A DNA stretch of 64,000 bases from positions 2,244-66,243 of the forward strand of contig CBDCXW010000005.1 of NCBI GenBank assembly GCA_965223945.1, given 5' to 3'. The translations under genes were made by a program, and so were the position numbers. Origin of the DNA: Dehalococcoidia bacterium (GTDB lineage: Bacteria > Chloroflexota > Dehalococcoidia > Lucifugimonadales > CATQGZ01). Positions 3,912 through 9,665 of this stretch are shown here, in pieces. The notes under the pieces were generated by a model, which made no database searches, was not told the origin of the DNA, and worked only from the letters and a program-made list of their open reading frames with translations. Each line of letters begins with the position of its first letter. Position 1 is the stretch's first letter.

Positions 3912-4699
3912 GCATGGACAAAGACTTCGCGATCCGGTTGCGGGACCTGACTATGGAGCTGCCCACGTACGGGCGGGTGAAGCACCCGTCGTGGAACGGC
4001 CTCGGGGCGACGCAGGCGGGAGTGGGCGGACGGCTGAACTTCTCCGACGGCCGGGCGACTGTGACGGCGCTGGACGACGTGAGCGTCGAGATCGCCCGCC
4101 GGGAGCGGGTCGGCTTGATCGGTCTGAACGGCGCGGGGAAGAGCACGATGCTGCGGGTGATGGCGGGGATATACTACCCGACTCGCGGGACGGCGGAGTC
4201 GCGCGGCAGGGTGTCGACGCTGTTCTCGGAGTCGCTGGGCCTGAAGCCGGAGGCGACGGGCATCGAGAACATCATGCTGTCGGGCGTGTCGCTGGGGCTG
4301 ACGCACGGGCGGGTGAAGCAGATGATCCCTGAGATCGTGGAGTTCACGGAGCTCGGGGAGTACGTCCACATGCCGATGCGGACCTACTCGACGGGGATGC
4401 GGGCGCGGCTGGCGTTTGCGGTGGCGACGTCGATCAGGCCGGAGATACTGCTGATAGACGAGATCATCGGCGCGGGGGACATGCGCTTCCAGGCGAAGGT
4501 GAAGGAGCGGCTGGAGGACTTCATGGGGTCGGCGAACACGCTGGTCGTGGCCTCGCAGTCGGAGCAGGTGATCAGGGAGTTCTGCGACCGGGCGATACTG
4601 CTGGAGCGGGGCCGGGTGCGGATGTCGGGCGGCGTCGAGGAGGTGCTGGCGGAGCACCTGGGGAAGCACGGCAGGCGGCGGGGAGCGGGCCGACCGTGA
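3908..4699 (+). CDS. polysaccharide ABC exporter ATP-binding protein (Wzt/TagH/KpsT-like), short form without C-terminal carbohydrate-binding domain
   Basis: Walker A GLNGAGKST, signature YSTGMRARLAFA, Walker B ILLIDE. 263 aa from the ATG at 3908, which overlaps the permease stop. The longer 3182 ORF start lies in another frame over the permease and is rejected. Confidence 0.85.
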   Translation: MSMDKDFAIRLRDLTMELPTYGRVKHPSWNGLGATQAGVGGRLNFSDGRATVTALDDVSVEIARRERVGLIGLNGAGKSTMLRVMAGIYYPTRGTAESRGRVSTLFSESLGLKPEATGIENIMLSGVSLGLTHGRVKQMIPEIVEFTELGEYVHMPMRTYSTGMRARLAFAVATSIRPEILLIDEIIGAGDMRFQAKVKERLEDFMGSANTLVVASQSEQVIREFCDRAILLERGRVRMSGGVEEVLAEHLGKHGRRRGAGRP

Positions 4700-6807: not shown

Positions 6808-9665
6808 CGGACAGCGCTCCTCCGTCACCAGGTAGGGACCATGTGGCCCAAGTCTATCTTGGCCTGATCGATCCGGGGCCGACCGGCGACTGGCTCCGCC
6901 GCCGGATCGACTGGATAGCCGCCGAAGCGCGTGGGCCTCACGTGCTGGACGTGGGGTGCAGCGAAGGGATACTGGAGGTGCTGCTCGCGCGCCGCGGCAT
7001 CGCGGTCACCGGGATAGACATCAACCCCGACGCTCTCAGCTTCGCCCGTGAGCTGCTTGGCAAGGAGCCGGACGAGGTGCGCGAGCGCGCCGAGGTCGTA
7101 CACGGCGACTTCATACGGACACGGCAAGTGGCCGGGCTCTTCGACACCGTGGTGATGGGGGAAATTCTCAACCATCTTGACGGTCCTGCCGCCATGCTGG
7201 ACAGGGGGCTGGAGTATCTCAGGCCGGGTGGACGTATCGTCGTCACGACTTCCCTCGGCCTGCATCCCCACGAAGCCCATCGACAGACCTTCTGCCTTAC
7301 CGATTTAATCGATCTGCTCAAGCCAAGAGTTGGGCTGGAACGGCTGAGCGTCTTGGACAACCATATCCGTTTCGTAGGCAGCTTGTCGGAGGACGGAGAG
7401 GCCTCTTGGCAGACCCTGGGTGCTGAGTCGATCTTGTCCATGACGGAAGCGGCGCTGGTGGCCTCCCAGACGAACCTGTACGAGATTCTGGAGCGGCGAG
7501 GCGAACGGATCGAGCGACTCCAGCAGCGGCTGCGGGAACGGGCAGATTCGGACCAAACCGCGGCGAGACGGCTCCAACGCAAAGTAAACTCCGCCAGCGC
7601 GAGGATCAAGAGGTTCGAGTTTCGGGTCAAACTAGACCGGATTGCTTTGTCGAACCTCGAGAAGCAGGTCAAAGCCAGGTTGCAGGAAGTCGAGGTCGCA
7701 ACCGGGGAATTGCTGGAGACAAGGCATCGACTCCAGGCGGCGCGTTCGAGCATGTCTTTCCTCGTGGGTTCGGCTTTTGTGAGGGCGGCGAAGCGGCCGC
7801 TCACACTGTGGAAGCTGCCCCTCCAACTCCTGCGGATTTACCGTTCGAAGTCCACGCCTCCAGCGGGGGCAGCCCTCCCGCAAGAACCAAGCCCGCTGCG
7901 CCCATACGTTCCCGAAGAGCCTTACCTGGACCCCTCTCAGTTCATCGACTTCCCGCCTTTGTATTTGCCATCGCCTCGGACCGGCGGCCCAACGGTGGCT
8001 GCCATCCTCGACACGTTCACCGAGTACGCCTTCCAGTATGAGGCGAACCTCCTGCTGGTGTCGCCTCAACACTGGCGAGCCCAGATGGAGAAGACGCGCC
8101 CGGCGTTTCTGTTCGTCGAGTCGGCCTGGAGGGGCAACAACGGAGGGTGGCGGAAGAGGATTGTTCGGTACGAAGACGTGGAGGACAATCCACTGCGCGA
8201 CCTCCTTCAATACTGCCGTTCCGAGGGGATTCCGACCGCGTTCTGGAACAAGGAGGACCCACCCCACTTCCACAACTTTCTCGGCGCCGCCAGGGAGTTC
8301 GACCTCGTCTTCACATCCGATGCAGACTGCGTTCCGCGATACAGAGAGGCCTTGGGACACGACCGCGTGTACGCCCTGCCGTTCGCCGCGCAGCCGCGGG
8401 TCCACAACCCATCACGGGAGAGAGGCTGGCCAAGCTACCCCGTATGCTTTGCCGGGAGCTGGGTGTCGCGCAGGTACCCCGAGCGCGCCGAAACACTCCG
8501 ATACCTATTGGAACCCGCCGTCCCGCACGGCCTGCACATCTTCGACCGCAACCTGTCGCGGCTCGATTTCGGTGGCGACTACCGCTTCCCGGACCGGTAC
8601 AACGAGGCGATCAAGGGAACTCTCACCTACGATGAGATGCTGACGGCCTACCGCTGCTATGACGTCATGTTGAATGTGAACACGGTAACCGACTCTCCAA
8701 CGATGTTCGCCCGCCGAGTCTTCGAAAGCCTGGCGTGCGGGACACCTGTCGTCTCCTCGGAATCCGCCGCCATGAGCAGGATGCTCGGAGGGCACGTCAG
8801 AGTCACACGGAGCAGGGAAGACACCGAACGCCACCTCCGGGACCTGCTGGGAGATAAGGAGACGCGCATCCGGGAGGGCCACCTGGCTTACCGCCACGTA
8901 CACGAGAACCACACATACCGGCACCGCATGGACGAGGTCTTCCGCAGGATCGGTTTCGAATCGCTCGTCCATCAACAGCCGTCGGTGAGCGTCCTGATGC
9001 CCACCATGCGTCCGGAGAACGTGGCCAGGTGCCTCGAGAACTTCAAGAAGCAGACTTACCCGGACAAGGAGCTGGTCCTCATCCTGAACAACGCGGAGTT
9101 CGATCTCGACGCCATCCGAAGGGATGTCGAGCTCATCCCCAACGTGCAGGTCCTCCACGTGGACGGTCGCACGACCCTGGGGAACTGCCTGAACCGGGGC
9201 GTGGAAGCTGCGTCGGGAAGGTACGTCGCGAAGATGGATGACGACGACCACTACGGCGAGCGGTACCTGTCGGACAGCGTTCTCGCGGCCTCGTTCTCGG
9301 ACGCGGAGGTCGTCGGGAAGGGGTCGTTCTTCGCATACTTCGAAGCCACCGATACTACAGCCTTGAGAGAAAATACGCCGGAGCACACGTTTACGTCCTC
9401 CACAATAACGGGCGGTACGCTGTTCATCCGATCCGACATCGTAAAGGATATCTCGTTCGACTCCATTTCACTGAAGGAAGATACGAACTTCCAGCGCGCC
9501 GCACTACTAGCCGGGTGCCGGATCTACTCGGCGGACCGTTTCAACCTCGTGCGAGTGCGGGGACGACGTTTGTCCAGTCATTCCGACCCGACACCGGACG
9601 CTGAATTCCTGAAAAAGTGTCGCGATCACACCCCCGGCCTAGACCTCGGCCGCGCGATGATATGA
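6804..9665 (+). CDS. multidomain methyltransferase-glycosyltransferase: class I SAM methyltransferase, long coiled coil, CgeB-like domain, GT2 domain (paralog of 4696..6807)
   Basis: ATG at 6804 overlaps the upstream stop (ATGA). SAM-binding motif VLDVGCSEGILEVLLARRGIAVTGIDINPDAL. About 100 aa of coiled coil (ERIERLQQRLRER...LEKQVKARLQEVEVATGELLE). The C-terminal roughly 620 aa is about 75-80% identical by eye to the upstream gene. Confidence 0.75.
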   Translation: MTDSAPPSPGRDHVAQVYLGLIDPGPTGDWLRRRIDWIAAEARGPHVLDVGCSEGILEVLLARRGIAVTGIDINPDALSFARELLGKEPDEVRERAEVVHGDFIRTRQVAGLFDTVVMGEILNHLDGPAAMLDRGLEYLRPGGRIVVTTSLGLHPHEAHRQTFCLTDLIDLLKPRVGLERLSVLDNHIRFVGSLSEDGEASWQTLGAESILSMTEAALVASQTNLYEILERRGERIERLQQRLRERADSDQTAARRLQRKVNSASARIKRFEFRVKLDRIALSNLEKQVKARLQEVEVATGELLETRHRLQAARSSMSFLVGSAFVRAAKRPLTLWKLPLQLLRIYRSKSTPPAGAALPQEPSPLRPYVPEEPYLDPSQFIDFPPLYLPSPRTGGPTVAAILDTFTEYAFQYEANLLLVSPQHWRAQMEKTRPAFLFVESAWRGNNGGWRKRIVRYEDVEDNPLRDLLQYCRSEGIPTAFWNKEDPPHFHNFLGAAREFDLVFTSDADCVPRYREALGHDRVYALPFAAQPRVHNPSRERGWPSYPVCFAGSWVSRRYPERAETLRYLLEPAVPHGLHIFDRNLSRLDFGGDYRFPDRYNEAIKGTLTYDEMLTAYRCYDVMLNVNTVTDSPTMFARRVFESLACGTPVVSSESAAMSRMLGGHVRVTRSREDTERHLRDLLGDKETRIREGHLAYRHVHENHTYRHRMDEVFRRIGFESLVHQQPSVSVLMPTMRPENVARCLENFKKQTYPDKELVLILNNAEFDLDAIRRDVELIPNVQVLHVDGRTTLGNCLNRGVEAASGRYVAKMDDDDHYGERYLSDSVLAASFSDAEVVGKGSFFAYFEATDTTALRENTPEHTFTSSTITGGTLFIRSDIVKDISFDSISLKEDTNFQRAALLAGCRIYSADRFNLVRVRGRRLSSHSDPTPDAEFLKKCRDHTPGLDLGRAMI

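Follow-up and report, generated by a model that had tools for sequence, protein, structure and literature searches.

A stretch of 64,000 nucleotides (nt) from a Dehalococcoidia bacterium (contig CBDCXW010000005.1, positions 2,244 to 66,243; hereafter the window, numbered from its first letter) encodes in tandem two large paralogous proteins, P1 and P2. Each carries two glycosyltransferase (GT) domains behind a predicted coiled coil, and only P2 begins with a methyltransferase. The question raised by this locus is whether a single polypeptide polymerises a glycan, measures it and terminates it, and what a neighbouring copy lacking the methyltransferase head would contribute. An earlier note, made from the sequence alone, had read the pair as a ruler system of the type known from O antigens exported by ATP-binding cassette (ABC) transporters. 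The gene context and the anatomy of the proteins fit this ABC-dependent polymerase/terminator class, but the setting of a lipopolysaccharide (LPS) O antigen was rejected on taxonomy, the host being a member of the Chloroflexota. We estimate, at a probability of roughly 0.6, that P2 is a polymerase-terminator with a ruler, of the same kind as WbbB, O7 ORF6 and WsaE, a reading that draws on sequence features and on analogy with these proteins. Its genomic setting is a compact cluster on the + strand (3087-16453) of wzm, wzt, P1, P2, a heparinase-like gene, an epimerase, a dehydrogenase and a GT4 gene, which is best explained as a Dehalococcoidia-like bacterium's locus for ABC-transporter-dependent glycan assembly.

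Anatomy of the two proteins

Both open reading frames (ORFs) lie on the + strand, as the earlier note had it. P1 (4696-6807; 703 amino acids, aa) is the head-less, first-position or A-type paralogue and consists of a short coil, conserved helices, a linker, a GT-B domain and a GT-A domain. P2 (6804-9665; 953 aa) is the second-position or B-type paralogue, in which a methyltransferase and a coiled-coil stalk precede the conserved helices, linker, GT-B and GT-A. The GTG at 6759 that had been taken as the start of P2 is probably too far upstream; we prefer the ATG at 6804, since this codon overlaps the stop codon of P1 (ATGA) and a 94%-identical orthologue (P0001) is also 953 aa long. The stop codon of wzt likewise overlaps the GTG start of P1 (GTGA), and wzt itself starts with an ATG at 3914, separated from wzm by a gap of 2 nt. 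From this arrangement, P1 and P2 are read as translationally coupled to the upstream wzm and wzt. A BLASTP comparison of P1 with P2 gave 71% identity over 705 aa. By region, the identity was 79% in GT-B, 78% in GT-A, 74% in the post-coil helices, 38% in the coil and 37% in the linker. Over the last 620 aa it was 75%, in agreement with the shared C-terminal module of about 620 aa, 75-80% identical, that had been noticed by eye. Both proteins keep every residue that is invariant among 62 homologues. The AlphaFold2 model of P1, built on 62 diverse homologues, had a mean predicted local distance difference test score (pLDDT) of 91.5; that of full-length P2, built on 32 close homologues, had a pLDDT of 52 and was used solely for the methyltransferase and for secondary structure.

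The candidate chain terminator of P2 is a class I S-adenosylmethionine (SAM)-dependent methyltransferase at aa 15-193 (6846-7382), as delimited by Pfam, sequence motifs and AlphaFold2. Five class I methyltransferase families (Methyltransf_23, Methyltransf_12, Methyltransf_25, Methyltransf_11 and Methyltransf_31) matched P2 at E ~1e-13 over aa 41-152 (nt ~6924-7259), where such a domain had been proposed (nt ~6924-7284). The same Pfam scan gave no methyltransferase family match in P1, so that a domain of the terminator type is present in P2 and absent from P1. The domain folded well in the AlphaFold2 model (pLDDT 72-89), and its ratio of nonsynonymous to synonymous substitution rates (dN/dS) was 0.07. 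Motif I reads VLDVGCSEG, and the post-I acidic residue (GID/GVD/GVE), GDF and DTVVMGE are conserved across the orthologues. A loss of SAM-binding residues, which the earlier note had named as a possible flaw in its reading, was not seen: in the motif alignment, motif I, the post-I acidic residue and motifs II/III are intact. The nearest sequence matches in the PDB were UbiG and natural-product O-methyltransferases, and the match to WbdD was marginal (E = 0.002 over 56 residues).

The methyltransferase of P2 is followed by a helical stalk at aa 207-314 (7422-7745), the candidate ruler, which was recognised by heptad score, AlphaFold2 and orthologue lengths. It comprises two helices (aa 207-259 and 267-314, in the low-confidence AlphaFold2 model) with ~108 helical, heptad-patterned residues in total. 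P1 retains a coil remnant at aa 12-65 (4729-4890; AlphaFold2, heptad score), one 54-residue helix of ~7 heptads, whose counterpart in the alignment with P2 is the second stalk helix. At P1 aa 15-67 and at P2 aa 234-292, the heptad-pattern score was higher than in 99.9% of random windows matched for composition. The coils placed earlier at 4756-4921 and 7431-7749 lie within a few codons of these helices, and the description of a head-less paralogue with a coil half as long is borne out. The heptad pattern and the long predicted helices speak for a putative extended coiled coil between terminator and polymerase in P2, and the stalk, if straight, would be roughly 160 Å long.

We compared the spacer between the end of the methyltransferase and the conserved RSS motif among the orthologues. 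Its length was 73, 76, 80, 91, 98, 105 or 112 aa in A copies and 109, 112, 116, 119 or 133 aa in B copies. Six of the 11 distinct lengths (91, 98, 105, 112, 119 and 133) are congruent modulo 7, and the pairs 109/116 and 73/80 each differ by exactly seven. The variation is confined to the distal helix (0 to ~75 aa), whereas the proximal helix, the one kept by P1, is constant, a pattern that speaks against an equal-armed antiparallel hairpin and fits an extendable stalk. In the B-type copy of one relative (L002, 9935-12940), a 21-residue stalk insertion consists of three near-perfect repeated heptads (…RTREIKARTREIEARAKEVEARTRELR…), and appears, from its sequence, to record the lengthening of a stalk through heptad duplication.

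Next to the coil, both proteins carry conserved helices, which lie at 4897-4992 in P1 (H68-81 and H83-99 in the AlphaFold2 model) and at aa 317-347 in P2, where together with a Pro-rich linker (aa 349-392, modelled at low confidence) they occupy 7752-7979. The linker that follows these helices in P1 is also Pro-rich and is disordered in the AlphaFold2 model. The post-coil consensus is SSxSFxxGSAxVxAAKxPxTLWKLPxxLLRxYRS, with residues near-invariant across the family; nowhere else in P1 is the hydrophobic moment as high, and the net charge of the segment is +3 to +4. It is possibly a membrane-associating or docking element.

The C-terminal module begins with a CgeB-like GT-B domain, at 5137-6096 in P1 and 7989-8960 in P2, and ends with a GT-A domain of family GT2, at 6130-6804 in P1 (aa 479-703, DDDD at aa 563) and 8961-9662 in P2 (DDDD at aa 812). 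This order, a CgeB-like GT and then a GT2 with a DDDD motif, had been recognised earlier, and Pfam assigned it above the gathering thresholds in both proteins. PF13524 (Glyco_trans_1_2) scored 56.6 and 69.0 bits for the two proteins against a cut-off of 25, PF12996 (DUF3880) 26.5 and 25.4 bits against 25.2, and PF00535 (Glycos_transf_2, GT2) 47.6 and 47.5 bits against 23.3. In the P1 model, GT-B (aa 148-467) showed an alternating strand-helix, Rossmann-like secondary structure and generic GT-B matches in Foldseek, e.g., MshA; the matches of GT-A were CgT (5hea), RmlT, WrtF, SpsA, TarP and PmHS2.

From this anatomy we infer how P2 would work. Its C-terminal GT-B and GT-A would alternate in adding two sugars, extending a lipid-linked glycan at the cytoplasmic membrane face, and this growing glycan would very probably contain N-acetylmannosaminuronic acid (ManNAcA). 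The methyltransferase, at the far end of the ~108-residue stalk, would be reached only by sufficiently long chains; methylation of the growing end would halt extension, and Wzm/Wzt would export the finished chain.

Descent of the pair and the fate of P1

The closest genomic relatives are Dehalococcoidia metagenome-assembled genomes (MAGs), at 64-73% identity, and full-length matches at 30-48% came from a Rhodobacterales MAG, Actinoallomurus, Mesorhizobium, Desulfobulbaceae and Saccharibacteria. The two tandem copies are both headed in nine related genomes, the first being 915-996 aa and the second 948-1001 aa long (counted as ORFs from the first possible start), and three genomes carry a single A copy with its head intact. 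A neighbour-joining tree of the GT module resolved first-position and second-position copies as separate clades, with P1 in the A clade and P2 in the B clade. The methyltransferase is present in 12 of the 14 A-type copies examined, and is missing only in P1 and in its orthologue from the closest relative (L083, 94%), which has 707 aa and the same N-terminal truncation. As compared with its orthologues, P1 is without ~215 N-terminal codons, those of the methyltransferase and of the stalk's first half. We read the pair as an old tandem duplication, of which P1 is the derived, head-less form. In another genome (L001), the A-type copy (7241-9988) keeps a methyltransferase-like domain, with ALDARGKEG as motif I and Gln as the post-I acidic residue. 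Judging by these motifs, the head of this copy is apparently dead and would represent a stage between the intact form and the deletion in the window.

The Rhodobacterales MAG (L014) encodes a head-less protein of 674 aa (5867-7891) and a headed one of 921 aa (9965-12730), which are 48-54% identical to P2, with a heparinase-like gene between the two copies and MnaA and WecC nearby. This arrangement suggests that the entire system has moved between phyla and that the head-less form arose independently. The identity between the window and L083 is itself uneven: it is 95-100% from 4465 to ~8400, then 76-88% through the GT-A domain of P2 and the heparinase-like gene (to 11193), and is back to 96.8% directly past the insertion site of an IS110 element. 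The segment ~8400-11193 looks like a recombination tract in which the GT-A domain was exchanged along with the adjacent gene, with the insertion sequence (IS) at its boundary. Gene conversion between the two paralogues, weighed as a source of this unevenness, was rejected, as the cross-paralogue identity is ~78% in both directions.

The spacer of the A copy is shorter than that of the B copy in all nine two-headed genomes (73-112 as compared with 109-133 aa), and the copies form separate, old clades; both points favour the reading of P1 and P2 as independent polymerases with different ruler lengths, producing two chain-length classes, as the earlier note had proposed. This proposal fails in the window, where P1 has no terminator: being head-less, it has nothing to position and is not a second ruler, and alone it would make uncapped chains. 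It also sits poorly with the catalytic modules, in which a search for fixed residue differences between A and B copies found none, suggesting that the two copies probably make the same linkages; different linkages for A and B are not supported. We regard two independent rulers as very improbable at the window locus, although the arrangement may hold in the relatives. A broader idea, which we consider doubtful, is that A and B constitute a conserved two-ruler machine, i.e., near-identical polymerase-terminators with heptad-quantised, unequal stalks that have been retained since the old duplication. If so, the machine would make two chain-length classes, or would be an EXT1/EXT2-like hetero-oligomer with capping heads at different heights, and in the lineage of the window the lower head would have been knocked out naturally. 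We are aware of no description of paired rulers in ABC-transporter-dependent glycan assembly.

The wider family shows how common the head-less form is. An exhaustive HMMER search at E <= 1e-30 gave 2,417 cluster representatives (50% identity clusters), spanning Chloroflexota, Actinomycetota, Proteobacteria and Saccharibacteria. Among 45 diverse representatives, all 45 were CgeB-like, 38 had a GT2 match and 39 a class I methyltransferase. In ~100 representatives with a BLAST-detectable methyltransferase, which was N-terminal in nearly all, the spacer between methyltransferase and GT was 50-830 aa long and largely heptad-like. Head-less versions of ~635 aa occur in Micrococcaceae, Corynebacterium and others, and are the norm in those Micrococcaceae loci that have these same core genes. 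In Pseudarthrobacter, the head-less gene lies 3' of ABC-2 permease and ATPase genes and beside a gene for a sugar dehydrogenase; two GT4 genes lie upstream of the transporter.

P1 might nevertheless be a decaying remnant of a partly deleted gene that contributes nothing, given that its ~215 N-terminal codons are gone, that an IS110 element has hit the same cluster, and that three relatives manage with one copy. However, the P1 ORF is intact in two genomes (703 and 707 aa), its start is coupled to the wzt stop, and all family-invariant residues are retained. Against L083, P1 as a whole had a dN/dS of 0.22 and its N-terminal 100 codons one of 0.11, values that rest on few substitutions (dS 0.037). 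Moreover, head-less homologues are common and apparently serve as the sole polymerase in Micrococcaceae, and the AlphaFold2 model of P1 is confidently folded. We consider decay quite unlikely, and P1 is most likely still an active polymerase.

In the scheme that we prefer, with P2 as the polymerase-terminator, P1 derives from an old A-type tandem duplicate, a type that in most relatives has its own methyltransferase on a shorter stalk. In its lineage the methyltransferase has gone together with the stalk's first half, and the 7-heptad helix, the post-coil helices and both catalytic modules are kept. P1 would probably dock onto P2 via the retained helix and the post-coil segment, and one terminator would serve the complex. 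The other alternative of the earlier note, a heteromeric polymerase/terminator complex, may thus apply.

Known systems, the transporter and a possible cap

The earlier note was aware of no described system with such a domain order. This did not stand, as Klebsiella pneumoniae O7 ORF6 (PMC11231755) and Geobacillus WsaE (PMC2943079) already have a methyltransferase before two GTs. O7 ORF6, which has been tested biochemically, comprises a methyltransferase-kinase, a carbohydrate-binding module (CBM), a coiled coil and two successive GT2 domains, and its authors describe the strategy as widespread, with homologues across phyla (PMC11231755). P2 is similar in that one polypeptide, encoded with wzm/wzt, has an N-terminal methyltransferase, a central coil and two C-terminal GTs in the polymerising position, a likeness of architecture. 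ORF6 differs in having its own kinase and CBM, in installing a methyl-phosphate, and in that both of its GTs are GT2 rhamnosyltransferases, whereas P2 has no kinase or CBM, places a CgeB-like GT-B first, is accompanied by genes for ManNAcA precursors and by a tandem duplicate, and belongs to a Chloroflexota host.

WsaE, from the S-layer glycan system of Geobacillus stearothermophilus NRS 2004/3a, has an N-terminal O-methyltransferase and two rhamnosyltransferase domains, and wzm, wzt and wsaE overlap in this order (PMC2943079). As in the window, a methyltransferase and two GTs are fused and encoded after wzm-wzt in a host that is not Gram-negative, and the methyl cap made by WsaE is a proposed chain terminator. 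The systems differ in that WsaE makes a poly-rhamnan with a partner GT, WsaF, and in that the Geobacillus Wzt is a proposed cap binder, whereas the Wzt of the window has no extension. In WbbB (K. pneumoniae O12 / Raoultella terrigena), too, one protein unites a terminator with a coiled-coil ruler and, at the C-terminus, two polymerising GTs, but its terminator is a GT99 beta-Kdo (3-deoxy-D-manno-oct-2-ulosonic acid) transferase, its polymerising domains are GT102/GT103, and its own Wzt has a cap-binding domain.

The WbdD/WbdA systems (E. coli O9a and O8; K. pneumoniae O3 and O5), for which, as for WbbB, a coiled-coil ruler holding the terminator apart from the polymerase is established, share with P2 a methyltransferase-type terminator on a probable extended coil. 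At its membrane-proximal end, the WbdD coil carries an amphipathic helix and a polymerase docking site, which by analogy would match the order of coil, conserved helices and GT domains seen here. In contrast to P2, the polymerase of these systems is a separate protein, and the WbdD of O9a also has a kinase. P2 is not of the WbdD type, having fused GTs, no kinase found in the Pfam scan and marginal sequence similarity. A helical stem followed by GT-B and GT-A is also found in the exostosins EXT1-EXT2 and EXTL3, heparan sulfate co-polymerases, of which EXT1-EXT2 is a heterodimer of paralogues. EXTL3 and EXT1-EXT2 were the best whole-length Foldseek matches of the P1 model, and the fold matches thus include bifunctional co-polymerases (EXT1/EXT2, EXTL3 and PmHS2); at a TM-score of 0.27 and 12% identity, and with a different domain packing, this resemblance is architectural only.

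The teichuronic acid synthetase of Micrococcus luteus is a membrane-associated complex with two transferase activities that makes (ManNAcA-Glc)n (PMC3005890). Micrococcaceae have head-less GT-B+GT2 homologues beside ABC-2 transporter and sugar dehydrogenase genes, a link that is circumstantial because the above paper does not identify the genes of the enzyme. A literature search on CgeB plus a coiled coil, or on DUF3880, found nothing relevant. As compared with all these systems, the distinctive features of the present locus are a CgeB-like GT-B in first place, the lack of a kinase and CBM, a conserved pair with unequal stalks, the loss of one head, a host from the Chloroflexota, and the absence of a cap-binding domain from Wzt.

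The transporter bears directly on the question of a cap. The ABC-2 (Wzm-type) glycan-export permease (3087-3911; Pfam ABC2_membrane) had the galactan export permease Wzm/RfbD as its top NCBIfam match, at a score below the cut-off of that model, and its gene position is conserved in related loci. The ATPase is a Wzt of the short form (3914-4699, 261 aa), with Wzt/RfbE and TagH as top NCBIfam matches. The Pfam scan gave ABC_tran alone (aa 53-183) and no C-terminal carbohydrate- or cap-binding domain. Since cap-binding domains on Wzt are the usual partner and hallmark of transporters for capped glycans (PMC6379404), the short Wzt is the main evidence against capping.

A Wzt of this form would be compatible with a different role for the methyltransferase, namely the decoration of internal residues in each repeat, with the helices as an oligomerisation scaffold and the length set by the coupling of polymerisation and export. 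The additional stand-alone methyltransferase gene within the L001 cluster points the same way, as methylation chemistry may exceed a single cap there. However, a scaffold need not span 50-830 residues or shift by heptads, and in every characterised case the enzyme found at such a coil's distal end is the terminator. Furthermore, the methyltransferase is dispensable in one paralogue, being deleted here and degenerate in L001, which is easier to understand with a once-per-chain cap; and seven relatives do have a large C-terminal extension of Wzt. We therefore consider decoration of the repeats unlikely, and prefer the hypothesis that P2 is a polymerase-terminator with a ruler.

In the seven relatives mentioned above (L002, 5402-7096; L005, 5603-7141; L007, 5645-7183; L008, L009, L012 and L013), Wzt is 512-564 aa long, and its extension is a plant-type leucine-rich-repeat domain of ~250 aa (LxxLxLxxNxLSGxIPxELG). 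This domain occupies the place of the cap-binding domain of O-antigen Wzt proteins and might play that role. The same seven genomes also have longer A-type stalks (91-112 aa).

Besides the short Wzt, several points weigh against the hypothesis that we prefer. The whole 64-kb window showed no initiating phosphoglycosyltransferase and no ligase. The central Gly of motif I is Ser in P2 (GCSEG), a family trait, as the relatives alternate between GCSEG and GCGEG. The AlphaFold2 model of P2 is poor outside the methyltransferase, and the estimate of purifying selection on P1 carries the small number of substitutions noted above. The complex of P1 with P2 is conjectural. In addition, we know of no polymer structure, cap or activity for any member of the family.

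Neighbouring genes and the likely glycan

Downstream of P2 on the + strand lies a gene for a heparinase II/III-like lipoprotein (9742-12784; Pfam Hepar_II_III_C), the protein having a lipoprotein-type signal (MAALLLAALVPMALG, then C). It is interrupted at ~codon 484 by an IS110-family element of 1.3 kb (11194-12496, transposase ORF 11311-12480), as mapped against L083. Joining the coding parts 9742-11193 and 12497-12784 restores a 579-aa ORF collinear with that of L083. Characterised members of the heparinase II/III-like fold family cleave uronic-acid polymers. The following genes, also on the + strand, encode a UDP-GlcNAc (UDP-N-acetylglucosamine) 2-epimerase (WecB/MnaA; 12760-13899), a UDP-ManNAc (UDP-N-acetylmannosamine) dehydrogenase of the WecC type (13892-15163), and a GT4 glycosyltransferase (WcaI-like by Pfam and NCBIfam; 15212-16453), which is a candidate primer or adaptor transferase and is conserved in every related locus. 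The epimerase scored 480.9 bits with TIGR00236 (cut-off 210) and the dehydrogenase 535.7 bits with NF008286 (cut-off 459); as both exceed these NCBIfam equivalog cut-offs, UDP-ManNAcA is taken to be made by the cluster. The set of Wzm, Wzt, A, B, heparinase-like protein, MnaA, WecC and GT4 recurs in those related Dehalococcoidia loci that have enough flanking DNA; the heparinase-like gene is often missing, and the rest of the set is kept.

Our best guess for the product is a teichuronic-acid-like glycan with a ManNAcA-containing disaccharide repeat, on account of the UDP-ManNAcA precursor genes and the heparinase II/III-like lipoprotein. A teichuronic-acid-like wall or surface glycan appears, from the gene content, more likely than an LPS O antigen.

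The cluster is followed by two genes for MsbA-like ABC exporters (16464-18236 and 18240-19310), the second of which encodes the membrane domain alone, with no ATPase domain. The segment 16772-19684, i.e., most of this pair and ~0.4 kb downstream, is absent from L083, which has a 211-aa remnant. In L002, the immediate upstream neighbours of the glycan cluster are genes for S30AE and serine hydroxymethyltransferase (SHMT), at 1659-3493; in the window they are ~38 kb off (41201-43459), with the SHMT gene on the opposite strand. This displacement indicates, as far as gene order tells, a rearrangement around the cluster. Elsewhere in the window, an IS5-like DDE transposase gene (44396-45412) adjoins a short glutamine synthetase ORF (45883-46779, 298 aa), which matches only part of the catalytic domain and is probably truncated.

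The coiled-coil ruler model for glycan chain length has so far been based on few enterobacterial proteins. With its natural head-less, dead-head and two-head combinations, the family described here provides a comparative series for relating stalk length to chain length outside LPS, and the same series could show whether one terminator serves several polymerase subunits. As to the organisms themselves, the locus points to a surface glycan of controlled length, with ManNAcA, in uncultured Dehalococcoidia of the marine or sponge type.

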